64,000 nt of DNA, from IMG/VR virus record IMGVR_UViG_3300036832_001118, positions 23,761-87,760 of that record; one strand, 5' to 3'. This document shows, in pieces, positions 7,148 to 20,993 of the stretch. The translations under genes were made by a program, and so were the position numbers. The notes beneath the pieces were generated by a model that saw only the letters and a program-made list of their open reading frames with translations, was not told where the DNA came from and did not search any database. The DNA comes from a virus. Position 1 is the stretch's first letter; each line of letters starts with the position of its first letter.

Positions 7148-9043
7148 ATGTCTCAGCCCTATTTCGGCCTACAGTTTATCCAACTCGACGACCAGCCGAT
7201 TCCGGTGCTGGGTGCCAATATGGATGTGATTGGAATTATTGGACCGTGCAGCACGGCCGATAATACCGTGTTTCCCCTCAACACCCCCGTCCTCGTCTAC
7301 TCGAACGATACCGATACCCTACAATCGCTTGGGAGTGACGGATACATCCAAGATGCCATCAACGGCATCAATGCGCAGTTGGCTGACTTCCAGGTCGCGG
7401 CGCAACTCGTGATCGTCGTCACGCCGTATGGAACGGCCGCGGACCTCAACATCAAGACGCAGCAGACGATTGCCAACATCATGGGCAACAGCGTCATGCG
7501 CACTGGTGTGTGGGCATTCACTAACGCGGCCAATATGCTGTACTGCACGCCGCGCCTGATCATCGCCCCCGGCTATACTGGTCAGATGGCCAACAGTTTG
7601 AACACGCTGTTCGTCAACACGGTTGGTATCGGCTACGTCCCCTATGGGACCTATCAGATCCAGTTCGCGCCGGGTGTGGGCGAACTCAATGGAGCGACGT
7701 TGGTTCTTCCCACCGCGCATGCGGTGGCGGAGGCGGATGGCTCGATCCATGAGCAGGATATCTTCATTGATAGCTGGGGGGCCTGGTTCACATCGGCGCC
7801 GACCGCAACCATTGTGACGCCCGACGGGCCGCCGGTCGTGGCGCAGCGTGCTTCGGGCAGCATGATCTTCAATCAGAACCCCGGCATCGGTTCGACCATC
7901 ACGCTCGGCGGAACGACCGTGACGTTTGTCTCCGGCACGCCGACCGGCAATCAGGTGCAGATCGGCGCCAACCTGTCGATCACGCTGAACAATTTGCTGA
8001 CGATGCTCAACGCCAGCGCCGACACCAACATCAGGATCTGTCAGCCGTATACGCTGAGCACCAACCAGCTGTTGTTCATCGCGACTGCCGCGGGGGCAGC
8101 CGGCAACGGCTTCACGCTTTCCGGGACGGTCACTGGGCTCTCGATCTCTGGGCCACACCTGACGGGCGGTCAAGATGCAATGGCCTCGGTCCGGTGCACG
8201 ATGACGGCGACGGTCGCGCTCGGTGCCAACCCGGTCTGCGCAGCGCTCGGCGGCGGCGTGCTCGATAATCTGATCGGGCAAGCGATTGTTGAGAGTGCCG
8301 GCACCTCGCAAATCCAGGACGAGAACTGGCGCACCACGATGAACAATCAAAGGGTCATTGCGGTCAGCGGTGGGGTGAAGATCCAGGATCCCGTGTCAGG
8401 CAACATCATCGTGGTGCCGCGAGCTGGTCGTGAGGCTGGCCTTGCTGTGGCACGTGACTTTGCCACCGGCGCGCCGTTCCACTCCTGGGCCAACCAGCCC
8501 ATCCAGGGCATCGTCGGGCCCGCCCGCACGGTCGAGTTCTCACTGACTGATCCGGCCTGTGAGGGGCAGCAACTGCTTGCCGCCAATATCGGCATCATCG
8601 CCCGCGGTTTGATTGGTGTGGAAACGGCGGTCAGTTCCGGCGGGTTCATCTCGATCACGTTGGACAACACAGGGGATGATCCTCTGTGGCAAATGATTAA
8701 CGTAAAACGCGGCAGAGACTTCATTCACCTCAGTCTCATGCCAGTGTTGCGGACCTACCTCGGGCGCTCCAATATTGATCGGCAGACGGTAACTAATGTT
8801 ATCACCACGATCAATGACTTCCTGTTCACCCTGAAGGCGCGCCAGCAAATCATCGACGGCAAGGCGTCATTCAACGGCAGCTTCAACACCGCAGGCGAAA
8901 TCCGGCTCGGTCACCTGACCGTTGGGTTCTCCGCCGAAGAAGCGCCGGTGCTCAAACTGATCACGACCATGTCGTCTCGGTACAAACCTGCGATAGATCA
9001 AATGGTCGCACAGCTAGAGCAACAGCTAAATATCTCGGCCTAA
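7148..9043 (+). CDS. Contractile tail sheath protein (P2 FI-like)
   Basis: FPLNTPVL, TGVWAF...PRLIIAPGYT, PFHSWANQPIQGIVG and W..INVKRGRDFI sheath motifs; strong AAGGAG RBS. Confidence 0.9.
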   Translation: MSQPYFGLQFIQLDDQPIPVLGANMDVIGIIGPCSTADNTVFPLNTPVLVYSNDTDTLQSLGSDGYIQDAINGINAQLADFQVAAQLVIVVTPYGTAADLNIKTQQTIANIMGNSVMRTGVWAFTNAANMLYCTPRLIIAPGYTGQMANSLNTLFVNTVGIGYVPYGTYQIQFAPGVGELNGATLVLPTAHAVAEADGSIHEQDIFIDSWGAWFTSAPTATIVTPDGPPVVAQRASGSMIFNQNPGIGSTITLGGTTVTFVSGTPTGNQVQIGANLSITLNNLLTMLNASADTNIRICQPYTLSTNQLLFIATAAGAAGNGFTLSGTVTGLSISGPHLTGGQDAMASVRCTMTATVALGANPVCAALGGGVLDNLIGQAIVESAGTSQIQDENWRTTMNNQRVIAVSGGVKIQDPVSGNIIVVPRAGREAGLAVARDFATGAPFHSWANQPIQGIVGPARTVEFSLTDPACEGQQLLAANIGIIARGLIGVETAVSSGGFISITLDNTGDDPLWQMINVKRGRDFIHLSLMPVLRTYLGRSNIDRQTVTNVITTINDFLFTLKARQQIIDGKASFNGSFNTAGEIRLGHLTVGFSAEEAPVLKLITTMSSRYKPAIDQMVAQLEQQLNISA

Positions 9044-9132: not shown

Positions 9133-9642
9133 GTGAGCCATATCATAGGCTTAATAGGAGAGCGCTTCGGGCGTCTATTGGTCATTGCCAGGGGCCCAAG
9201 CACTAAAGTTAACGGTTTTGCTTGTTGGGCTTGTCAGTGCGATTGCGGCAAGGTCACGGTCGTTAGCGGCATTAACCTACGGAATGGTCAGACCCGCTCC
9301 TGTGGATGTCTTAGGAAAGAAATGCTTGACGCCGGATTACATGTCACTCACGGGAATCGTCGCGGCCGTAAATCAACGCCAGAATATCAAACTTGGCTTG
9401 AGATGATGCGCCGTTGTTACAATCCGAACTTCATTGGTTTCAAAGATTACGGGGGTCGAGGTATTCGAGTTTGCAGAAAGTGGCGCCGGTCATTTGAGGC
9501 GTTTCTTGCTGATGTAGATAGGCGCCCGTCGCCTGAATACTCGATAGATCGTATCAACAACAACGGAAATTACGAGCCCGGCAACGTGCGTTGGGCTACG
9601 CGTAAAGAACAAGCAAACAATAGACGACCGCGGACAAAGTAA
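9133..9642 (+). CDS. Free-standing HNH homing endonuclease
   Basis: GERFGRLLV, CQCDCG, SCGCL, YGGRGIRVC..W, SIDRINNNGNYEPGNVRWAT..EQANN; lower GC than the flanks. Confidence 0.9.
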   Translation: MSHIIGLIGERFGRLLVIARGPSTKVNGFACWACQCDCGKVTVVSGINLRNGQTRSCGCLRKEMLDAGLHVTHGNRRGRKSTPEYQTWLEMMRRCYNPNFIGFKDYGGRGIRVCRKWRRSFEAFLADVDRRPSPEYSIDRINNNGNYEPGNVRWATRKEQANNRRPRTK

Positions 9643-9768: not shown

Positions 9769-10359
9769 ATGGCTAACCCAGTTTGGACTTTGGAAGATGC
9801 GAACATGTTCTGCGGTGTCGGTCCCACCGACAACACGGCCAGCAACCATCTGGTGCTGACCGAAGTAAAGCTCCCTGGCCTCGACATGCAGTACGTCGAC
9901 CATCGCGCTGGTGGCGCGCCGATTGCGATCGAAGTCAGCACAGTGATCGCCCGGCTTGAGTGCACGTTCGTCTGCGTCGGGCTGCAGGATCAGATCATCA
10001 AGCTGATAGGCAGTTGGAACAACACCATGAACTGGTTCTGGATCTATGGTGTGATCCGCGACCAAGGTAATGGCACGGCAGCTCAGGCGGCCGCGGCGAT
10101 CAAAGGTCAGCTTGGCCGTGCCGATCCGCAGAACTATCGACGTGGCGATCTAATGCACACGAACTACGCCATTCGCGGCATTACGCACTACGAATTCAAC
10201 ATCGCGGGCGCGAATGTGGTGCTCTGGGATTATATGTCCAACACCAGGATCATTGGCGACGTCGATCAGAACCGGGTCATCAATACCTTCCTCAACACCG
10301 CGGCAGTGACAGCGGCCCCGGCGATCTCGACCGTGTTCCCATTCCAGCCGGGTGAATAA
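9769..10359 (+). CDS. Tail tube protein (P2 FII-like)
   Basis: Position after the sheath; EVKLPGL...DHRAGG motif; AGGAG RBS. Confidence 0.85.
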   Translation: MANPVWTLEDANMFCGVGPTDNTASNHLVLTEVKLPGLDMQYVDHRAGGAPIAIEVSTVIARLECTFVCVGLQDQIIKLIGSWNNTMNWFWIYGVIRDQGNGTAAQAAAAIKGQLGRADPQNYRRGDLMHTNYAIRGITHYEFNIAGANVVLWDYMSNTRIIGDVDQNRVINTFLNTAAVTAAPAISTVFPFQPGE

Positions 10360-10893
10360 ATGAAAGCGTGGGCTATGCGCAACGACGGCACGTTCGTCGT
10401 TGAACTCTACACGCCGCTCAAGCATCAAAATCGGGAGATCGAATACATCGTCATTCAAGCTCCGCGCTACGAGCATTCCATCCGTTGGAACCGCGGTGAG
10501 ATCCCATCAGGCTTTGCCCTGTTGGCGGAACTCACCAACTTGCCAGAGCGATTGCTGCGTCAGGTGACCAATCCAGATATCGACCGCATCACCTTTGCGC
10601 TGTTCGCGCAGGCGAAGTTCGCGCAGACGGACGTGTTTGAGGGCAAGATCCCGCTCGCCACGCCGGATGAGCAGCTACCCGAAGACATGGAAACGCCAAT
10701 AGTCGATCAGGTTGATCCGCGCTTCCCGCACGTTGAAGGACCGATCAAACGCTTCCCAGCCCCGCCGGTCACACAAGTTCCCGGCGCGGCGCCACAACCC
10801 GGAGCAGCACCTGCGTCGCCAGCACCCGCAGCGCCAGCAGAGAATTTCGATCTTGGCTTTAGCGGGCCAGAAGCGATGAAGGCGGTTAGCTAA
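10360..10893 (+). CDS. Tail assembly chaperone (P2 gpE-like) with a Pro-rich tail
   Basis: VELYTPL..., LAELTNLP...D.DR motif; lies between tube and tape measure. Confidence 0.7.
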   Translation: MKAWAMRNDGTFVVELYTPLKHQNREIEYIVIQAPRYEHSIRWNRGEIPSGFALLAELTNLPERLLRQVTNPDIDRITFALFAQAKFAQTDVFEGKIPLATPDEQLPEDMETPIVDQVDPRFPHVEGPIKRFPAPPVTQVPGAAPQPGAAPASPAPAAPAENFDLGFSGPEAMKAVS

Positions 10894-13800
10894 ATGGACG
10901 ACATCCTCGCCAGCGCTCAAGTTGTTTTGGAAGGCGTTGACAAAGTCAGTCCTGCTGCGACCTCGAGTATAGACGCGCTCAAACGGCTCGCCGCGACTGG
11001 CGCTGATGTACAACGGCAGCTGATCAATGCCGCACAGAACCATCAGCAAACGCTGCAAGTCCTTAATAAAATTTATGCGCAGAACCAGCAGGCGGCACAA
11101 GCCGCGGGTACGGGAGCGACCCAAGCCGCCAATGCAGCATCTCAGGCGGTTCAGAAGCATACGCAAACGGTCCAACAAGTACCTCCCGCACTTAATGCGG
11201 CGGGACGTGCCGCCAATCAGCTGCAGAAACAACTGACGGATGCGTTCTCGGTCTATGCGATTGAGGAGTTCATTCGCAAGTCTTACATGGCTTTCACCAG
11301 CCAAGAATTGGCGATGCGTAGAGTTCAACTCGCCGCTGGCGGCACGACAGAGGAGATCAACAAGGTACACCGGGGACTGCACGATATAGCCACCGAAACT
11401 AACCAAGCGACCGAGAATATGGCCAAGGCGTTTCGCGACTTTCAGGCCCGATCCGGGCTGGGCTATGGTGAGGCAGTAAAGGCGTTTAGGGCCGTGGCTG
11501 ATGCCGCTGATTTGGCTGGCGTCCACGTTGACGCGATGTCGCGCGTTGCCACGGCGGCGATGGCGCAGTTGAACATCAACGACAAGGAATTGTCGCAGCT
11601 CATGGGAGCTTTTGGCAAAGCCTTCGCCGGAATGGGCAGTGAAGCTTTGCATGTCATGCCGAATATCATTGCCTTGATGCAGCGGCTTCATATCACCGGA
11701 AAGGATGCGCTTGAAGGAGTTGCTGCTGCTATCCAGGCTACAGGCAAGCTACAGGGCTCAGCTGAGGGGGCCGCGCGCGGGTATCAGGCCATCGTCGACC
11801 TGGCGTCTCGTCCAGATACTAGGCTGGGTTATGTACTTCAAGACAAAGTTCAAGCCGTTGCGGATCATATTGGCGACACTACCGATTTATACGCGGCTGC
11901 CCTTGAGAAGATGCGAGAGGAATGGAAGAAGACTGGCGGCAATTTTCGCAGCGAGATGATGCAATTGAATTTAATGTTTGAGGGCAACCAAGACGCAATA
12001 CAAACGGCCCGAGCTGCCATGAAGTTATCCGATGAGGAATTTAAAAAATACATTCAAGACTTGAAGGAAAAAATGGCGACAGAAAAAGAAGCCGCAAAGC
12101 TACATGAAGAGACCATGAGAGGAGCAATCGACGGAACGCGTAAGCTCATTGGCGCCTGGAATGATTTGGAACTTTCGATCGGCGGGCTCCTGGATAAGCT
12201 GGGCGCAACCGACAGTCTGAATAGTACCGTCACTGATTTGAAGAAGCTCACGGAATTGCTTGAGTGGCTAGATAAGTTCATGAAAGAGCATATGAGTATG
12301 GGAGGGCTCGGCGGTGTAACAAGTGGATTTGGTCTCGGGACGCGGTTTCGCGAGCATATTTTAAGTCTTCCTCCCGCCTTCAGCATGGGCACCCCGGCGC
12401 CGCCGAGAATGCAATCTGGCGGCGTTGTCACTGAACCAACCGTCGCAATGATCGGCGAGGCTGGGCCCGAAGCGGTCGTGCCGCTCGGCGGTGGTGGCGC
12501 TGATATGCGTGGCGCTGACGGCGGCACTCAAGCCGAGCGTGAGGCGGCCGAGATGTGGGGACGTCTGCATGGTCTGGCCGGAGCGCGCCACAAGCACGTC
12601 GATCTGAAGGGCCAACTCAGCCAAGAGGAATTGGACAAGATCCTGCAAGCTGAGGGAGGTGGCGGCCCTGGTGGTGGCGGCCGTGACACCGGGTGGGGAC
12701 CGGGGAGTGGACGCGGGGGAACCAGAGGGGACGGCACCTCTCGTGGTGACGGCAGAACTGACGACAATAGAACTTCCGATGTGAAGCCGCCTCCAGCGGC
12801 AGCGCCACTGCCAACGCAAGGCGCGGCTGGCATCCCTGGGTTACCCGGCAGCCCATCCGGTCCAGCGCTGACGCCTGAAGAGCGCAAAGCGGCGGGGGCG
12901 CCGAGCGGTGGAACAGGAGGAGAATTTCAAGCCGGTGGAAAGTACTCAAAATCACAGCAGGCGGCCATCAATGCCGTTGTAAATGAATGGCGCAAGGCTG
13001 GAATGTCTGATGTTGGCATTGCAGGTGTTCTTGCCAACATTCGTGAGGAATCTACATTTGATCCAACTTTGCGACATCCCGATCAGCCAAAATACGGCGG
13101 TGAAGCGCATTTTGCGCATGGCTTGTATCAGGAAGGCGGCGCTGAATGGAATAACTACGTAAGTTGGATGCAGCGGAATTATCCAAAAGGCGATTGGCGT
13201 GATCCGAAATTGCAAAGTGAATTTGCTGCTAAGAATTTGCGCGAAGGGATAGGCGACGCGCGTTATAAGGCAGTTTGGGAAAGGATGAAAAATGCCAAGA
13301 CGCCAGCGGAAGCAGCAGCGGCTTATGTTGAAGGTTATTTGAAACCTGCCGCAAAATATCGAGAAAAACGCGTTCGTGAGTTCAGGGCCGGTGGCGCTCC
13401 CGGTTTAGAGACATATGGAACCGGAACTGGTGGCCCCGCTGAGATAGCGCGACCCGACTTGCCGCCGATAGGTCAGGTCGCCGGGCTGCCGGGTGGGCCG
13501 TCTGGTCCGAGCCTGACGCCGGAACAAAGGAAAGCGGCTGCGACTGGTGGCGGTGGGGGCGGCGGCGAGGGTGGTGGCAGTGTGATCTCTCCATTCCCAG
13601 GCGCTCATGGGTTTGGAATCGGGTCTAGCAATGTTTATGGAGCAGGCAGAAGCGGAGGGCGCCGAGCGCATTCAGGTAATGATCTTCATGCCGGTGATAG
13701 TCCGGGGTCGACTCCGAATGGCACGCCTGTAGTGTCAATGACTGGTGGTACGGTTCTCTACAACGGCAGGAATTCGGGATATGGAGCAAATATTGTCATC

Positions 13801-14973
13801 AGGGGCGATGACGGCATTATTCGTAGATACGCAGTTCATGGAAGTACTGCGGATCTAAAGCCGGGAGCGCATGTTGATCAGGGGCAGTTCATTGGTCGCA
13901 TTGGGGAGAACCATCTCCATTACGAGGAAATTCCGCCTACCAGAAATGGTAGGGACAATCCAGTCTATCATGAATTTGAGAGAAATGCGAGGACCAATAC
14001 ATTTACCAACACAGCAAACCAAAGAGGAACCGTTGATCCTTCTGGCCCCCACGGATCATTGCAGAACATAGGCAAGAAAAAAGAGCAGGTCGACCAAGCA
14101 ACCGGCCCGACGAAGCCTGGCGGCAAGGGCACCAAGCTCTTCATTCATGGAATGAATTATGAGCGCTTTGGTGACGCCAGCAAGATACAAGATGAGATCG
14201 AAGCGGATGTGCGGCGTCAAGCAGCGGCCGAGGGTTACGACAACGTAGAGTTTGTTCGCGGCAGCAATAACCAGCAAAAAATTGCTGAGGCCGATGCGCG
14301 TCTGAAGAAAGGGGGTATCACGAAGGTTGATGGCTTCTCGCAGGGTGGCTACATTATCAATAATCACCTGCGAAAGAGATATCCAAAAATTGCTATGACG
14401 GATTATGGTGCCACAAAAAGTGGCGCTGATCCTAATTTCCCTGGCGTCAAACATATGCAGTTGCCGAAGGCGGCGGCTGATAGAGCTGTCGAAGAGCGTA
14501 AGGCGCGCGAGGCCAAGGCGGCACCAGCGCCTGCTGTCCGCAGCGCTGAAGTTGAGCGCGGTGAGGCAGCTGGCCTACAGGCGCGCCTCGCCCAGGCTGA
14601 CAAGGAAGCGGCGGCAGCTAAGCCCAAGAAGGAAGCGGCAGGACCGCCGCTAGCATTGAAGACGGCTAAGGCGATGGCCGAGGGCGGCATCGTCACGCGA
14701 CCGACCGATGCGCTCGTTGGCGAGGCGGGTCCCGAGGCGATCATTCCGCTGGACGGTGGCGGCTCAAGTAGTTTGGACATTGACAGTTTGCTCCGGCAAC
14801 ACGCCGAGTTGCAGGCACATATGAACCAAAATCCGATCGAGGTGCCGATGGCTGAGCCGCATCGCATGGGGGGCGGTCGCCAACCGTTCGGTCGCATGAT
14901 TGAGATGTCGCGACGTAAGACCGAAGCGCGCCGCACGGCACATGAAGTGCCGCTCGATACAGGGCCGATGTAA
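10894..14973 (+). CDS. Tape measure protein 1 with phage-tail-lysozyme-like, M23 peptidase and GxSxG hydrolase-like cargo domains
   Basis: About 480-aa helical N-terminus. Cargo motifs: GIAGVLANIREESTFDP/HGLYQ; HSGNDL...GTPV...GYG...HLHYE (M23); LFIHG...GFSQGG. Two GG.VT.PT.A..GEAGPEA..PL motifs. Confidence 0.85.
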   Translation: MDDILASAQVVLEGVDKVSPAATSSIDALKRLAATGADVQRQLINAAQNHQQTLQVLNKIYAQNQQAAQAAGTGATQAANAASQAVQKHTQTVQQVPPALNAAGRAANQLQKQLTDAFSVYAIEEFIRKSYMAFTSQELAMRRVQLAAGGTTEEINKVHRGLHDIATETNQATENMAKAFRDFQARSGLGYGEAVKAFRAVADAADLAGVHVDAMSRVATAAMAQLNINDKELSQLMGAFGKAFAGMGSEALHVMPNIIALMQRLHITGKDALEGVAAAIQATGKLQGSAEGAARGYQAIVDLASRPDTRLGYVLQDKVQAVADHIGDTTDLYAAALEKMREEWKKTGGNFRSEMMQLNLMFEGNQDAIQTARAAMKLSDEEFKKYIQDLKEKMATEKEAAKLHEETMRGAIDGTRKLIGAWNDLELSIGGLLDKLGATDSLNSTVTDLKKLTELLEWLDKFMKEHMSMGGLGGVTSGFGLGTRFREHILSLPPAFSMGTPAPPRMQSGGVVTEPTVAMIGEAGPEAVVPLGGGGADMRGADGGTQAEREAAEMWGRLHGLAGARHKHVDLKGQLSQEELDKILQAEGGGGPGGGGRDTGWGPGSGRGGTRGDGTSRGDGRTDDNRTSDVKPPPAAAPLPTQGAAGIPGLPGSPSGPALTPEERKAAGAPSGGTGGEFQAGGKYSKSQQAAINAVVNEWRKAGMSDVGIAGVLANIREESTFDPTLRHPDQPKYGGEAHFAHGLYQEGGAEWNNYVSWMQRNYPKGDWRDPKLQSEFAAKNLREGIGDARYKAVWERMKNAKTPAEAAAAYVEGYLKPAAKYREKRVREFRAGGAPGLETYGTGTGGPAEIARPDLPPIGQVAGLPGGPSGPSLTPEQRKAAATGGGGGGGEGGGSVISPFPGAHGFGIGSSNVYGAGRSGGRRAHSGNDLHAGDSPGSTPNGTPVVSMTGGTVLYNGRNSGYGANIVIRGDDGIIRRYAVHGSTADLKPGAHVDQGQFIGRIGENHLHYEEIPPTRNGRDNPVYHEFERNARTNTFTNTANQRGTVDPSGPHGSLQNIGKKKEQVDQATGPTKPGGKGTKLFIHGMNYERFGDASKIQDEIEADVRRQAAAEGYDNVEFVRGSNNQQKIAEADARLKKGGITKVDGFSQGGYIINNHLRKRYPKIAMTDYGATKSGADPNFPGVKHMQLPKAAADRAVEERKAREAKAAPAPAVRSAEVERGEAAGLQARLAQADKEAAAAKPKKEAAGPPLALKTAKAMAEGGIVTRPTDALVGEAGPEAIIPLDGGGSSSLDIDSLLRQHAELQAHMNQNPIEVPMAEPHRMGGGRQPFGRMIEMSRRKTEARRTAHEVPLDTGPM

Positions 14974-17900
14974 TGGATGAAGTTGTCGGCAGCGCCAAGG
15001 TTGTTCTGGAGGGTATCGATAAGATTAGCCCTGCCGTAACAACCAGTATCGATACACTTAAAAAGTGGGCGGCAAGTGGCGCCGATGTGCAACGGCAGTT
15101 GATCCAGGCTGCGCAGAAGCATCAACAAACACTGCAAGTGCTTAACCAGATCTACGCACAGAACCAACAAGCCGCACAAGCTGCAGGCGGCGCAACGACA
15201 CAAGCGTTCAATGCAGGAACGCAGGCGGCTCAGCAATTAACGCAGGCGGTTCAGAAAGTGCCGCCCTCACTTATTAATATCGGACAGGCCGGCGCCGTCT
15301 TACAAAAACAAGTCGCCGGCTATTTCTCGATCTACGCGATTGAGGAGTTCATTCGCAAGTCTTACATGGCTTTCACCAGTCATGAAGAACATATGCGGCG
15401 AATTCAACTCGCCTTTGGCGGTACCACAGAGGAGATCAAAAAACTACATGGTGAACTGAGTAGCCTGGCGGCAGCGGTCGGGTCAACAACAGAGAAGATG
15501 ACTGACGACCTCCGTGCGTTTATGGCCGGTTCAGGACTTGGACGCGGCGAGGCACTGGAGGCGTTCAAGGGTATTGCCATGGCGGCCGACGAGGCCGGCA
15601 TTCACGTGCAGGATATGTCACGCATTGCCACAATGGCAATGGCACAGCTGCAAATTAGCACGCGAGAGATGCCCCAGTTAATGGGGTCAATGGGTAAGGC
15701 TTTCGCTGAAATGGGCGCTGCGGCCGCGCGCGTCCTGCCGAATATCATCACTTTGATGCAGCAGATCGGCCTTACAGGCAAAGCCAATCTGCAAGCCGCC
15801 TTGGCCATCGCCGAGGTCAGCACAAAAGCTACCGGCGACGCAGAGATTTCTTGGCGTAATCTGCAGACCATATTGCAGCAAATGGGCGATCCCGAAAGCA
15901 AATTGAATCGTCAGGCGGCGGATAGGTTCGACGCTTTCAAACAGAATATTGGCGATACCATCGATGCATACATGATTGCCGTTGATTGGACGCGGGATGT
16001 TATGAAGCGGCATCCCGACATCCGCAGCGTAAACGCTGAAATGGATTGGATGTTTGGCCATAATGTGCAGCTGCAGGAACAGTTAAAACACGATGCGGCA
16101 GTCGAGCGGGATGAGTTATATAAAACATTACGGGCCCAGAAGGATGCGCTCGGTAATGTCAAGGAGATCGATGAGGCGCATCAAAAGTTTGTAAAGGGCT
16201 CAATAGATGGAACGCGTCGGCTCTCGCAAGCTTTGATCGACGTGGCAGTATCGGCCGGTGGATTTCTTGATTCGATTGGCATGACTGATACTTTGCATAG
16301 CACTGTTACCGACCTGCAACATCTCAAAGAACTCATTGAATGGTTTCAAGGGAAGAGTAAGGAGGGCGAAGACAAGGGCGGCGTTCCGAACGATGCTTCA
16401 GAGTACAGGGACATGCTGCGCCGCCGAATACACCCACCGGCTAAGCCAGAAATCAAGCCACATCAATCTGGTGGCGTTGTTAGTGAGCCGACCTTGGCAA
16501 TGATCGGTGAGGCTGGGCCGGAAGCCGTGGTCCCGCTGACACGCGGCTTTGATATGCGCGGCGCCTCGGGCGGTACGCAGGCCGAGCGGGACGCCGGGAC
16601 AATGTGGGCTCGCTTGCATGGTCTGGCACTAACGCGGACCAAGCATATCGATCTGCACGGGAAGCTGACGCAGGAAACCATCGACAAGCTGATGGGTGGC
16701 GGGGGCAGCTCTGGCGGAGGTGGCGCCAGCGGGGATTCCAGCGGGGCGAGCGGGACACCGACGGGGACAAGCAGCACGACGGGTGACAGCAAATCAACTG
16801 GCGATAGCAAGGCTGATACAGGCGGTACGCAACCGGCCCCGCCTGGGGCAGAGGGAACATTCCGACCTGTTTATAAACTAGGGGGTGCTGATCTCAGCGA
16901 CGCCGTCGTCAATACGATTGCCGGCGAAGCTTACACCAACAATCAAGAGAGCGTCGATGCTGTCATCAATAATATGCTGAATCGCGTCGGATCGAAAGGC
17001 TGGGGGCCATCCGGCGACATGCAACAGGTAGCACGCGCGCGCGGTCAATATGCTGGCTATCGTAAGGCCAATGCTAAAGAAGCTGAATTTATTCGTAACA
17101 GAATCAAAGCCATCGCGTCCGGTGGGGTTAAAGACAACACTGGTGGATCAAACGAATATCGAGCAGGTTCCTACCGCGGGCCTTGGTATCAACATCATCG
17201 CGACGCACCAGTAGTTGGTGGCAATCGATTTGGCTTTAATCCAAAAGTTTCAAATGGACCTTACGCTCCTTATCCAACCAAGATGATGGCCAAGGGCGGA
17301 ATTGTTACGAAGCCTACGCTGGCGACGATCGGCGAGAATGGGCCAGAGGCCGTGGTGCCGCTCCAGGAGGTGGGTACAAAGGGGCAACAACAGCAGTTTT
17401 GGGGAATGCCGAGTGAGGGTGGAAAGGAGGGAGAAGCGGATTTAGATCCAGTACGTGCATTAGCGTTCGAGAATGAAAAAATTTTAGGACAGCCTGGGCG
17501 TCATCGTGCTTCGCAGTGGCACGAGTGGTTGAAGCAAAATCCCTATGGCCGTGGGGTAAGTGAGGGAGAAGCTATAGGTACCAATCCATTTGGGGTTCGA
17601 CAAAAGGAGTATTTGAAACAGCTAGAACGTACAATGGAGGTACAGGGAGATAACCCTGATCTCGATAAGAGAGTCTTGGAAGATTTAGGCCCTCGTCCAT
17701 CGCAAGCCAGCCTCACTGGTGGCGGCGGCTCTAGTGGTGGTGCCGGTGCCAGCATGAACTTCGGTGGTGGCTTTGGCGGCGGCGAAACATCTGCACCGGA
17801 AGGCTACACGCCGAGCGTGGCCAACATACATCCAAACGCTCATGGATTTCTTAACGCGATTGCTAGCACAGAGACAGACTTCAGCGAAAGAGAGGCTTAC

Positions 17901-18473
17901 TCCGACGCGACTAACGTCAAGAGCTACGGCGGCAACACGTCGATGTACGATTACGGCTACTATCAGATGGCTCAGCGTGACATCGACTATGCTGTCAAAA
18001 CTCTGCACATGTCTCCGGAGATAGCTCAGCATTTGACTGGTGGGCCTGATCATAAGAGTACGCTCGATCAGCAGACTGCTTCCGTTAATGAATATTTGCA
18101 GCGGCGTTATCCAGACGCTTATAGAAATCTAGTGGAGCGCGGTGACTATGAAGGCATGCGCCAGGCCACGAGGCATGGCAAAAGCTGGGTTTGGTTTGGC
18201 CTGAAAGACAAACCCAAGCAAGCTTTGACTGAGTACAACAAGGTCGCGCAGCCGCAGACCACGGCAGTGACGCCGCTGCCCAAGTCGCGACCGGCATCGG
18301 CGCAGGCAAGCGCACAGACCCACTTCAACAACAACCCGATTCAGGTGCCGGTCGCCCCGGCCAAGCTTGGGGCACACCGCCAATCGTTTGCGCGCAGCGC
18401 TGGTTGGGCGCAGCGCAAGGCGCATGCCCGCAGCGCTCGACAGGAAGCCACGGTTCATACCGGGGAGATGTAA
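14973..18473 (+). CDS. Tape measure protein 2 (paralogue) with SleB/Hydrolase_2-like and lysozyme-like cargo
   Basis: N- and C-termini are clearly homologous to TMP1. Cargo motifs: TIAGEA...AVINNMLNRV...QYAGY; FLNAIASTE...YGYYQM. Confidence 0.85.
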   Translation: MDEVVGSAKVVLEGIDKISPAVTTSIDTLKKWAASGADVQRQLIQAAQKHQQTLQVLNQIYAQNQQAAQAAGGATTQAFNAGTQAAQQLTQAVQKVPPSLINIGQAGAVLQKQVAGYFSIYAIEEFIRKSYMAFTSHEEHMRRIQLAFGGTTEEIKKLHGELSSLAAAVGSTTEKMTDDLRAFMAGSGLGRGEALEAFKGIAMAADEAGIHVQDMSRIATMAMAQLQISTREMPQLMGSMGKAFAEMGAAAARVLPNIITLMQQIGLTGKANLQAALAIAEVSTKATGDAEISWRNLQTILQQMGDPESKLNRQAADRFDAFKQNIGDTIDAYMIAVDWTRDVMKRHPDIRSVNAEMDWMFGHNVQLQEQLKHDAAVERDELYKTLRAQKDALGNVKEIDEAHQKFVKGSIDGTRRLSQALIDVAVSAGGFLDSIGMTDTLHSTVTDLQHLKELIEWFQGKSKEGEDKGGVPNDASEYRDMLRRRIHPPAKPEIKPHQSGGVVSEPTLAMIGEAGPEAVVPLTRGFDMRGASGGTQAERDAGTMWARLHGLALTRTKHIDLHGKLTQETIDKLMGGGGSSGGGGASGDSSGASGTPTGTSSTTGDSKSTGDSKADTGGTQPAPPGAEGTFRPVYKLGGADLSDAVVNTIAGEAYTNNQESVDAVINNMLNRVGSKGWGPSGDMQQVARARGQYAGYRKANAKEAEFIRNRIKAIASGGVKDNTGGSNEYRAGSYRGPWYQHHRDAPVVGGNRFGFNPKVSNGPYAPYPTKMMAKGGIVTKPTLATIGENGPEAVVPLQEVGTKGQQQQFWGMPSEGGKEGEADLDPVRALAFENEKILGQPGRHRASQWHEWLKQNPYGRGVSEGEAIGTNPFGVRQKEYLKQLERTMEVQGDNPDLDKRVLEDLGPRPSQASLTGGGGSSGGAGASMNFGGGFGGGETSAPEGYTPSVANIHPNAHGFLNAIASTETDFSEREAYSDATNVKSYGGNTSMYDYGYYQMAQRDIDYAVKTLHMSPEIAQHLTGGPDHKSTLDQQTASVNEYLQRRYPDAYRNLVERGDYEGMRQATRHGKSWVWFGLKDKPKQALTEYNKVAQPQTTAVTPLPKSRPASAQASAQTHFNNNPIQVPVAPAKLGAHRQSFARSAGWAQRKAHARSARQEATVHTGEM

Positions 18474-19121
18474 ATGGCCGTTCCACCCTTCACCGTCCCT
18501 CTTCCGAACGTCATCGGTGTCAAGAACCCGCCGGTTACCCCGCCCGTAGAGAACACTTTCAAAATCCGGCCTTATTACGAGGCTTATGCTAGCGGTCAAA
18601 CGAGCAAGTATCCCTATGCGAGCTGGCTGCAGAACGGAGCCAGCCTGTATGCGCCGACGACAGATAGCGGCATCAACAATGTTCTATACGCGTGGGGGCC
18701 GATCCAATTTATTGTTGTTGGATTGAACACGCATGAGCTGGACCACGATACGGAAACGGATTGGGCGCAGAAGGAAATTGTAAACGCGGCGATCTACAGG
18801 GAGTGGGTAGGAGAAAACGATGAGCAACTCTACGTGCGCGGGCGCATATTCCCTTATCGTATCCAGGGCATGACACAGCTCGAAGCATTCGAGTTGCAAC
18901 GGCGCGGCGGCATTGTCAACCAACTCATCCGCGGTGATGGCTTGATCATGGGCTGGTTTGCCTGTCAGAAACTCGTGCGCGGTCATACGTTCCTGTCTGC
19001 GGAAGGCGTCGGCCAGCAGATCGCTTTCGAGACCGTGCTGGTGCGTTGTCCTGTGCCCGCTGCTGACAATCGCTATTCCAGTCTTTGGGGCACCATGATC
19101 AATCCGCAGGGACTAGGCTGA
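18474..19121 (+). CDS. P2 gpU-like tail/baseplate protein
   Basis: LYAWGPIQF...WAQKEI...EWVGE...LIRGDG..MGWF motif; position after the TMPs. Confidence 0.8.
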   Translation: MAVPPFTVPLPNVIGVKNPPVTPPVENTFKIRPYYEAYASGQTSKYPYASWLQNGASLYAPTTDSGINNVLYAWGPIQFIVVGLNTHELDHDTETDWAQKEIVNAAIYREWVGENDEQLYVRGRIFPYRIQGMTQLEAFELQRRGGIVNQLIRGDGLIMGWFACQKLVRGHTFLSAEGVGQQIAFETVLVRCPVPAADNRYSSLWGTMINPQGLG

Positions 19122-19143
19122 TGGGCAAGCGTAGGTATGCCGC

Positions 19144-19413
19144 ATGGTGACCGGTTTCGAATTAGTCCAGGTGACGACAGACTACGTCACCGCAGATCTG
19201 ATTATTTGGAAGCGCTATAAGCGCAAAGCGCCGGGTATGGTCGAGCTGATGCTGGACGCCAATCCGCAGTTGGCCTTCGTGCACCGGACCACGCCGTTCA
19301 TTCCGCCGGGCACTTATCTGCGTGTGCCGATCGATCCTGGAATGATCCTTGGGCGTATCGCGCCGCTGCCCACGGATTCCTTGTGGACTGACAGGGCGGG
19401 TAGTACGCTGTGA
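19144..19413 (+). CDS. P2 gpX-like tail protein
   Basis: DLIIWKRY...VELMLDANPQLA...IPPGT.L.VP motif. Confidence 0.85.
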   Translation: MVTGFELVQVTTDYVTADLIIWKRYKRKAPGMVELMLDANPQLAFVHRTTPFIPPGTYLRVPIDPGMILGRIAPLPTDSLWTDRAGSTL

Positions 19414-20993
19414 GCAACGGCGGCATCCCGCTGCCATCGTTGCCGCCTGATCCGATCCTTGTTGGACAGCCCTTCCCGCTGCAAGGCTTGCCGCAAGCGC
19501 CGTTCGGTTCGCCAATTCTTGATACGCGACCGGGACCGCCGCAACTGCTCAACAGTGCCAGCGGCGGCGTAAACACCAGGTACACCACGGACATTTTTTC
19601 CGGGACGGACAACAATGGCAATCCGCTTCCACCGCCGCCGAACCCGTTTATCGGCTCGCCAATTCAAACTAATCGGCTGCAGGCTTTCTGCACGGTGATA
19701 GTCGCCGGAGTCGATATCACGGATAAGCTCAATCCCTATCTCATCTCGCTGCGGATAGTAGATGCCAAGGTTCCAACCGCAGAAATCGAAATCGATGACC
19801 GTGACGCACGGCTGCCGATCCCGCCATATAACGCGGATGTCAGCATCTACATTGGCTGGGTGGCTGAGGCTACCTACGTGAATTTCAAAGGTGTGATTGT
19901 GGACCTCGAATACAGCGACGCGCGCCAGGGCGGCCGACACATGACGGTGCACTGCCGGGCTGACAGCCTGAATACCAAGATGAAGGAACCAGGTTCCGAT
20001 AATGTAGGCGATGGCCCCCCACCGGGCGAGAACGTCGGCAAGACAATTCCTGTCAACGAATGGCTACAGTCCGCGGCGAAGGCGGCCGGGACGATAGTGA
20101 GTTTTGCACCCGATGCGCTGGCGAAGGCGCAGAAACTTTTGAAGGATCATCATGACCGCAACAATGAAAGCATGCAGCAATTGGTGGAGCGTGAGGCCAA
20201 GGCGGCGGGCCTCACCACGCAATATTTTCGTGGTGGGGTCAAACTCTTCGGGATCAACGACGCGCAGGGAAGTGTCATCGCCCAGGTCGGTTACAATCTG
20301 ATCAGTCTACGCGTGCGACCCTACTCGGCCCGTGGCAGCTGGAGCGACAGCAGACAACACTGGTTCGATACCAAGCTGGGCCAGTGGAAGCGAATGAAGA
20401 TCCCCATCAGCACCGGCAGCGCGCAATTCGACAGTGCGATTGGTGCGGTTGCAGGCTTCCTGTTGCCGAAACCGGCGCCAGACGAGGCGTCAGCGCAAGC
20501 CGATCGCGACGGGGGATCTAATCAGGTTGGCTTCGGTTATGGGCACGGTCGTATCTGTATCAATGGTGAGCCATCGGCACAATTCTTGTGTGCGGTAACG
20601 GTGATCGGAGTACGCTCCGGTGTGGATGGCCGTTACAAGGCTTGGGACGCGGTCGAGCATATCTATTCCCGTCAAGGCTACGTCACTTGGCTCGATGTTA
20701 TTACGGATGCGGACGGCAGCCCCGGCAGCAACGTGCTGGAAGGTCACATCGCGGCGGCTGAGTTGGGTGCGAAGTTGGCGCTAGCCTACGCAAAACAGGG
20801 CGTTAGCGCTATCGTGCCGCTTCCCAGCCCAACGCAGCTAAACCAACAAGTTCCCGCAGGAGAGCCGATCGATTCGGGTACCGCGTCGTCTCTCTTGCCA
20901 AACCTCTCACCCCCTCCGCCTGTGCCGAATGCGCCGATCCCACTTGATCCATTGGGGTCATTGGGGAGTCAACCCTTGGGAGGGTCTTTGTGA
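19410..20993 (+). CDS. P2 gpD-like baseplate hub (late control D) with Pro-rich termini
   Basis: VAGVDIT...LISLRIVD, EIEIDDRD..L..P, GVRSGVDGRY...VEH.YSRQGYVT. Confidence 0.8.
   Translation: MSNGGIPLPSLPPDPILVGQPFPLQGLPQAPFGSPILDTRPGPPQLLNSASGGVNTRYTTDIFSGTDNNGNPLPPPPNPFIGSPIQTNRLQAFCTVIVAGVDITDKLNPYLISLRIVDAKVPTAEIEIDDRDARLPIPPYNADVSIYIGWVAEATYVNFKGVIVDLEYSDARQGGRHMTVHCRADSLNTKMKEPGSDNVGDGPPPGENVGKTIPVNEWLQSAAKAAGTIVSFAPDALAKAQKLLKDHHDRNNESMQQLVEREAKAAGLTTQYFRGGVKLFGINDAQGSVIAQVGYNLISLRVRPYSARGSWSDSRQHWFDTKLGQWKRMKIPISTGSAQFDSAIGAVAGFLLPKPAPDEASAQADRDGGSNQVGFGYGHGRICINGEPSAQFLCAVTVIGVRSGVDGRYKAWDAVEHIYSRQGYVTWLDVITDADGSPGSNVLEGHIAAAELGAKLALAYAKQGVSAIVPLPSPTQLNQQVPAGEPIDSGTASSLLPNLSPPPPVPNAPIPLDPLGSLGSQPLGGSL

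Follow-up and report, generated by a model that had tools for sequence, protein, structure and literature searches.

The 64,000-nucleotide stretch analyzed here, referred to as the window, corresponds to bases 23761-87760 of the 87,760-bp IMG/VR record IMGVR_UViG_3300036832_001118 (linear class, CheckV completeness estimate of 94%), and it holds a real tandem duplication of a P2-like contractile-tail tape-measure gene. The two copies, named here tape-measure paralogues 1 and 2 (TMP1 and TMP2), are intact open reading frames (ORFs) of 1359 and 1166 amino acids (aa), located at 10894..14973 and 14973..18473 of the + strand, on which all the domains and motifs of both proteins given below are also placed; the stop codon of the first gene and the start codon of the second share one base (TAATG; sequence ATGTAATGG). 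Residues 1-584 of TMP1 align with residues 1-574 of TMP2 with 302 of 584 positions identical (52%), 10 gap positions and an E value of 3e-161 (BLASTP), a similarity that, judged by this statistic, is far beyond chance. The C-terminal tails, i.e. the last ~55 aa, are also related (32% identity over 111 aligned positions, E 8e-9, BLASTP); the middle regions differ, and the sole common element in them is a motif of ~25 aa, the GPEA motif. A preliminary description of this DNA had proposed two complete tandem tape-measure paralogues that overlap translationally through TAATG and differ in their middles. The overlap and the different middles are borne out by the ORFs, BLASTP and Pfam, and the copies are complete in the sense that both keep the N-terminus, the body and the C-terminal tail common to their single-copy relatives, as well as the GPEA motif and the segment of ~50 aa after it. 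It seems somewhat probable to us that both paralogues are co-loaded in the same tail and expelled at contraction with different enzymes; the evidence that bears on this interpretation and on its alternatives is presented below.

The N-terminal body of TMP1 (aa 1-470; 10894..12303) is homologous to the body of TMP2 by BLASTP, rich in helix-forming residues and poor in proline and glycine; in residues 1-460 of the two proteins, Pro and Gly together account for 3-15% and A/E/L/Q/K/M/R for 35-68%, values that describe composition alone. Identity between the two proteins is uneven, reaching 73-83% in aa 1-75, 106-150 and 496-555, and falling to 17-37% in aa 271-400. The C-terminal tails (TMP1 aa 1300-1359, 14791..14970; TMP2 aa 1105-1166, 18285..18470) are homologous to each other and to the tails of single-copy relatives. 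TMP1 matches PHROG tape-measure families (phrog_10093, E 2.3e-15), as does the region of TMP2 from aa 9 to 314 (phrog_1535, E 5.7e-13; phrog_794, E 2.6e-7), and the N- and C-termini of both proteins are collinear with those of the single tape-measure gene of a related phage, L006.

The contig is of metagenomic origin, and within each of the two genes de Bruijn contigs are interrupted by an exact repeat of 44 nt; these two facts speak for an artefact or a decaying duplicate, whether two strains joined in a chimeric assembly or a redundant copy of recent date that is being lost. The soil metagenome run X1, which contains 99% of the sampled words of the stretch and may be its source, was examined through its Logan contigs, which reassemble the same reads and are not independent data. 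These contigs cover 30/30 bins at a depth of 13.9-21.5, and they break at 11271-11286 and 15350-15365, inside both copies of the repeat; a single contig of 4095 nt that spans 11271..15365 crosses the TMP1/TMP2 junction with 0 differences. An assembly chimera was rejected on the basis of this bridging contig and the uniform depth, and the pair is thus not the assembly artefact considered in the preliminary description. Short pieces of both genes are also present in run X2, from a second soil study (0-1 differences each, depth ~3, share 0.26); no contig of this run crosses the junction and it was not used as evidence for the arrangement. The genome itself contains exactly two matches to the N-terminal body, TMP1 and TMP2. 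In addition, the divergence implied by 52% identity far exceeds strain variation, both frames are open through 1359 and 1166 codons, an orthologue of each copy occurs in a second phage and the same arrangement is found in six other loci; with these observations on the other side, an artefact or a decaying copy is hardly credible.

The second phage is represented by two relatives obtained from ENA by a word-indexed search, P0003 (693 aa) and P0004 (964 aa), both listed on a 30,446-bp contig. In the N-terminal body TMP1 is 61% identical to P0004 and TMP2 is 65% identical to P0003, whereas all four cross pairs show 49-52% identity; in a tree, (TMP1, P0004) and (TMP2, P0003) are supported by 99/97 and 100/100, respectively, and they join with 89/96 as a sister group to P0021, L005 and L006. 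Because the orthologue pairs group together both in the tree and by identity, the duplication predates the split of the two phages, with both copies kept since then; by these comparisons the duplication is old and both copies are conserved in the second phage. Between TMP1 and TMP2, dN (nonsynonymous substitution) is 0.42 and dS (synonymous substitution) is 2.3, a saturated value, so that the ratio is at most ~0.18. The relaxed selection that had been contemplated for the second copy is not what this ratio or the identities to the orthologues indicate. Several ENA relatives (among P0003, P0004, P0012, P0021 and P0140) end or start in apparently frameshifted sequence, and their lengths are unreliable as gene lengths.

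A relative with a single gene allows a closer look at the slot occupied by the pair. In L006/L044 (IMGVR_UViG_3300036828_001341) the tube, chaperone and gpU proteins are 86%, 75% and 79% identical to those of the window, and a single tape-measure gene of 1204 aa lies between chaperone and gpU (L006 3842-7456); its product keeps the N-terminus, the GPEA motif, the segment that follows it and the C-terminal tail, and carries other cargo. The body of this protein is only ~31-32% identical to that of the window's proteins, and because the flanking genes are 75-86% identical, the tape-measure slot evolves far faster than its neighbours; on this evidence, divergence or replacement is concentrated there within an otherwise conserved tail module. 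Judging from L006, one tape-measure gene suffices for the same tail type. Microcystis phage Mae-JY30, the nearest cultured phage by its sheath (40% identical to that of the window), also has one gene, of 761 aa, in the tape-measure slot. Other searches for relatives gave little: neither megablast of 10000-19500 nor tblastn of TMP2 found a match in 50,697 phage records; the TMP2 N-terminus as a single query gave 10 pattern matches in the viral contig collection, 0 confirmed; an alignment of the N-termini (A1) gave 291 pattern matches in metagenome contigs and 75 in genome contigs, 0 confirmed in either; the relative P0007 gave 52 in genome contigs, 0 confirmed, and one unrelated M23 match in phage records; and the chaperone query returned only L005 from the viral contig collection.

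The recurrence of the arrangement was surveyed using gpU as the handle. We fetched 34 metagenome and 46 viral loci, which together with L005-L007 and the window make 84 sources; 2 of these had no gpU ORF, 38 were too short for the tube or chaperone marker, and 44 contained a complete interval from chaperone to gpU, which were reduced to 28 distinct loci by merging tape-measure proteins at least 95% identical. The survey covers phages whose gpU shares 33-93% identity with that of the window, and second ORFs are detectable in it from 300 aa upwards. One large ORF (676-1363 aa) occupies the tape-measure slot in 21 of the 28 distinct loci, and two adjacent large ORFs are present in seven (the window, L015, L050, L051, L052, L055 and L060). 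The earlier statement that tailed phages normally have one tape measure holds, therefore, for 21/28 related loci, but duplication is recurrent in this phage group, since the search for tandem tape-measure genes that had been suggested along with it found two-gene slots in 7/28. The N-terminal 410-580 aa of the paired ORFs are homologous in six of the seven pairs (24-52% identity, E 3e-30 to 3e-161, BLASTP); the L050 pair gives a weak BLAST match (E 2.6e-4), and in the tree each of its members adjoins its L051 counterpart. The C-terminal tail motif is kept in 14/14 paired proteins (in the six other pairs it is of the type ...PIK..M.V..P...(D/N)IG(F/Y)A), the paired genes adjoin directly or share 1-4 nt in 7/7, and in 7/7 the upstream copy exceeds the downstream one in length (1130-1359 aa vs 735-1166 aa). 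In the six pairs other than that of the window, all from uncultured phages, the upstream copies measure 1130-1349 aa and the downstream ones 735-1094 aa; the L015 pair is located at L015 2655-9989.

The origin of the pairs was approached with a tree of the first 470 aa (35 rows, inferred by a quick method with SH-aLRT support only). In this tree the two proteins of the window (WIN_A, WIN_B) are grouped with support of 100, and adjoin the single-copy L006 (98) and then L045 (95); (L015_A, L015_B), also with support of 100, is placed elsewhere in the tree; and L050, L051, L052, L055 and L060 form one clade that adjoins the single-copy L048 and L049. Within this five-phage clade all first copies group together (97), as do all second copies (98); the two groups are sisters (97) and have a congruent internal order. 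At least three changes of state are required because the supported branches of the tree force them, and the simplest reading would be three duplications, one of which was kept while five phages diversified. A single ancient duplication of all the pairs was rejected, given that each of the three pair groups adjoins single-copy relatives; concerted evolution may apply in L015, which is a single genome. In the least saturated comparison, L050 vs L051, the first copies give a dN/dS of 0.27 and the second copies 0.31, and tube, chaperone and gpU give 0.08-0.17; by these values both copies are under purifying selection, constrained more loosely than their neighbours, as the tape measures of this group generally appear to be.

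The constant order of lengths within the pairs bears on a possible division of labour, in which one copy would be the length ruler and the other would be ejected as a carrier of cargo, loaded by means of the terminal modules of a tape measure. This explanation would account for the longer upstream and shorter downstream copies; it also agrees with the second copies of the five-phage clade, which have no recognised Pfam domain in 3/3 examined, and with the paper on phage A-1(L), which reports that the spike is reached by only three of the six chains. On the other hand, both copies keep a full-length collinear body (10 gap positions in 584) and the C-terminal tail, which a pure carrier would not obviously need, and both evolve at similar rates; we therefore regard a division of labour as improbable.

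The middle regions carry the presumed enzymatic cargo. In TMP1, a Phage_lysozyme2 domain is located at aa 693-828 (12970..13377; PF18013, E 8.1e-18, 65.4 bits vs a cut-off of 28.2), which also matches the PDB entry 3csr of phi29 gp13 (E 9e-4; the second gp13 entry of the 3csq/3csr pair, E 4e-3), and a Peptidase_M23 domain at aa 940-1011 (13711..13926; PF01551, E 5.1e-13, 49.5 bits vs 28.7), which matches LytM in PDB (3nyy, E 1.2e-4). The translated M23 domain contains HSGND and HLH, which we take to be its zinc-ligand motifs (HxxxD and HxH). Residues 1075-1215 (14116..14538) form a candidate small alpha/beta-hydrolase-like domain, recognised by motifs alone: FIHGM, GFSQGGY and GAD..FPGVKH, which are conserved in P0007 as FxHGM, GFSxGGY and D..FPGVxH. 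No Pfam match was obtained for this region, a search for shorter homologues found none, and its Atlas scores of 0.83-0.87 are below 0.9 and count as leads only; the alpha/beta-hydrolase reading is thus a candidate at the level of motifs.

In TMP2, aa 620-770 (16830..17282) resemble SleB/Hydrolase_2 (PF07486) below threshold (E 0.0015; 19.6 and 18.6 bits vs a cut-off of 27). Hydrolase_2 is matched at E <= 0.01 by 13 of 39 aligned homologues of this domain, the best at 1.9e-6, and an exhaustive search gave 539 matches, of which most of the best 150 cover only aa 620-770, mostly with ~45-68% identity; a profile of the homologues of this region found 0 chains in PDB. The domain is treated here as a probable distant relative of Hydrolase_2 and not as a member. 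A domain of unknown function at aa 800-905 (17370..17687) is common to P0011, where 67 of 105 residues are identical, and has no Pfam match. The third conserved domain, at aa 940-1095 (17790..18257), is possibly transglycosylase-like: it shows a nearly invariant E, E and DYG..QM (DYGxxQM) in 11 sequences, and its Atlas scores to SLT and lysozyme2 clusters are 0.81-0.84, below 0.9 and leads only. For this domain there was no Pfam match, 0 PDB matches by profile, and no match by hhalign to the lysozyme domain of TMP1 (probability 0.2); phmmer of TMP2 against PDB gave nothing meaningful. It also occurs in L015_B (46%) and P0012 (59%), and the lysozyme domain of TMP1 occurs in L060_A (61%); to judge from this distribution, the cargo is a mosaic of domains shuffled among lineages.

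The enzymatic labels of the preliminary description fared unequally under these comparisons. The tail lysozyme and the M23 peptidase of the first protein both exceed their Pfam cut-offs. The SleB-like label of the second protein falls short of the Pfam cut-off, but finds backing in the 13/39 homologues that match Hydrolase_2; likewise, the GxSxG hydrolase label agrees with the motifs conserved in P0007, but it has neither a Pfam match nor a short homologue. The lysozyme-like label in TMP2 found no support in Pfam, PDB or hhalign, which leaves the Glu and DYGxxQM motifs and the weak Atlas leads. With two domains that pass, one below threshold, two recognised by motif and one of unknown function, the phrase "five or six distinct envelope-degrading enzymes" was an overstatement.

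Shared elements are interspersed with the cargo domains. The GPEA motif, GG(I/V)V.xPTxAx(I/V)GExGPEA(V/I)(V/I)PL, of ~25 aa, occurs twice in each protein and four times in total (repeat family D1), and was located by repeat search and regular expression at aa 509-531 (12418..12486) and 1264-1287 (14683..14754) of TMP1, and at aa 500-523 (16470..16541) and 775-798 (17295..17366) of TMP2. In PHROG tape-measure profiles it lies close to the C-terminal end, and P0154 contains many copies. A docking strand or a site of processing are conceivable roles; no mention of the motif was found in a full-text search of the literature. A linker with the sequence G(L/A)PGxPSGPxLTPE(Q/E)RKA precedes the lysozyme and the M23 domains of TMP1 (12838-12891 and 13483-13536), is present twice each in P0004 and P0007, and is absent from TMP2; it has the look of a boundary between exchangeable cargo cassettes.

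The 44-nt repeat mentioned above consists of a tract at 11257..11300, within TMP1, that is identical to 15336..15379 in TMP2; it contains the codons for AIEEFIRKSYMAFTS and is the longest identical run, the gene bodies around it being otherwise 59% identical. The codons of shared residues are identical in 80-86% of cases in this stretch vs ~35-55% in most other segments. A functional element at the nucleotide level was rejected, given that the relatives L005-L007 vary at synonymous sites within the region of the tract. Because the relatives differ at these sites, a short gene conversion is favoured, and the tract is more likely to be the trace of such an event. The repeat could also mediate a deletion to a single chimeric gene; no chimeric deletion joint at the repeat was found in runs X1 and X2.

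The pair is embedded in a P2-like tail module. Its first gene encodes the tail sheath (7148..9043, +; 631 aa; phrog_23, E 5.3e-34), and is followed by an HNH endonuclease gene, an insertion at 9133..9642 (phrog_374, E 2.3e-63), and by the tail tube gene (9769..10359, +; 196 aa; Pfam Phage_tube FII PF04985, E 4.7e-16, 59.5 bits vs a cut-off of 22.4). At the place of the endonuclease gene, L005 has an ORF of 185 aa. Directly upstream of TMP1 lies a single putative tail-assembly chaperone gene (10360..10893, +; 177 aa), recognised by its position only: it has no match in PHROG or Pfam, and 10360-10893 contains neither a slippery heptamer (XXXYYYZ) nor an alternative frame that is open. This gene is in the frame of TMP1, with one TAA between them, and is without a frameshift signal, unlike the two-product chaperones usual in long-tailed phages. 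The downstream edge of the slot is a gpU-like tail gene (18474..19121, +; Pfam Phage_P2_GpU, E 4.1e-18), after which come a small baseplate-hub-like gene and more tail genes. From tube to gpU, each of the four gene junctions reads TAAATG or TAATG. TMP1 and TMP2 fill the slot between the chaperone-position ORF and gpU, and the same synteny was found in 43 fetched loci.

With this organization, the co-loading of both paralogues could proceed as follows. TMP1 and TMP2 would be translated from one operon message, coupled via TAATG, and the single upstream chaperone would handle both of them. They would then load into one tail-tube lumen as a mixed bundle, with the length-matched N-terminal bodies side by side and the C-terminal tails at the hub or spike; contraction would expel both into the host envelope, where the differing cargoes would open the wall locally, TMP1 contributing a lysozyme, an M23 peptidase and perhaps an esterase, and TMP2 a SleB-like hydrolase and two more conserved domains. 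The duplication would in this way enlarge and diversify the enzyme load per tail, and the ruler part would not be lengthened. The paper on phage A-1(L) describes gp13 as a six-fold bundle that docks to the spike through no more than three of its C-terminal helices (PMC10966104); together with a preprint on P2, it presents lumen densities consistent with six chains, only three of whose C-termini are docked at the spike. Because such densities leave room for two non-equivalent sets of chains, co-loading is plausible. A more specific version, possible if doubtful in our view, is that TMP1 and TMP2 are the two non-equivalent sets of a six-chain bundle (3+3), i.e. a hetero-hexamer in which each would have its own docking role and cargo.

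The same data can be read in terms of two tail populations, in which only homomeric bundles would form and one infected cell would release virions with either of the enzyme sets, as a bet-hedging strategy against different wall chemistries or growth states. Bundles could indeed be self-specific with bodies that are only 52% identical (17-37% in aa 271-400); moreover, the total lengths are unequal, the payloads are entirely different, and in L006 one tape-measure gene is enough for a near-identical tail. However, the genes overlap, are coupled and are expressed in one cell with a single chaperone, long stretches remain 73-83% identical (aa 1-75, 106-150 and 496-555), the published lumen densities suggest more than one chain set per tail, and there is no evidence of regulated or alternative expression; we consider two populations rather unlikely.

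Several points nevertheless weigh against co-loading, or against the observations that sustain it. The total lengths differ by 193 aa (1359 vs 1166), and in the other pairs by 255 to 471 aa, a difference that fits co-assembly poorly if the length of the whole protein sets the length of the tail. The conserved termini could reflect shared partners, such as the chaperone and the hub, instead of contact between the paralogues. With respect to the identity of the proteins, the Pfam TMP_3 matches are below threshold (21.8 and 16.6 bits vs a cut-off of 41), and 4/6 cargo labels are without threshold-level support. The age of the duplication leans on P0003 and P0004, whose location on one contig is deduced from their common source and the 30,446-bp listing, and both of which end without the C-terminal tail; their missing tails are likely the result of assembly (frameshift) errors, because P0012 and P0021 visibly run into frameshifted sequence.

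The tape measure is usually viewed as a homo-oligomeric ruler encoded by a single gene, and the recurrent, selected duplications show that a tail can evolve two chains; they bear on an open structural question, namely the number and arrangement of chains in the tail lumen. If the hetero-hexamer is true, the two-gene phages would allow the disputed stoichiometry of three vs six to be read directly, because the two sets of chains are distinguishable by sequence and mass. The pairs also bear on how phages diversify the enzymes they inject, and the shuffled cargo offers a natural library of tail-delivered wall enzymes. For annotation pipelines, a second tape-measure gene should not be merged or discarded as a frameshift artefact.

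Tape measures with a built-in wall hydrolase include T5 pb2 and, reportedly, the tape measure of mycobacteriophage TM4. The tape measure gp95 of phiCbK is described with a CHAP domain (PMC3556154). These three are long helical lumen rulers with peptidoglycan-degrading domains that are expelled at infection, a design that the proteins of the window probably share; in contrast, each of those phages has one such gene, and the window has two tandem paralogues with two or three cargo domains each. Tape measures with embedded wall hydrolases are thus already established, whereas a recurrent and selected doubling of the gene is undescribed in the literature searched: no description of tandem tape-measure paralogues was found in a full-text search, which did not extend to supplementary files. 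The tandem of a lysozyme-type domain followed by an M23 peptidase in TMP1 has the same order as in phi29 gp13; phi29 is a short-tailed phage in which these domains make up a tail-tip protein of their own, and in TMP1 they are embedded in the tape measure. With the tail module of P2 (FI, FII, E/E+E', T, U, D) the window shares the order sheath, tube, chaperone-position gene, tape measure and gpU, and it differs in having two genes in the T slot, an HNH endonuclease gene between sheath and tube, and no frameshift signal in the chaperone-position gene. P2 gpT has ~815 aa, and the window's proteins are 1.4-1.7 times that length. Finally, A-1(L) gp13 and P2 gpT indicate that the lumen of a contractile tail may hold two non-equivalent three-chain sets; in those phages all the chains come from one gene, whereas in the window two genes could supply both sets.

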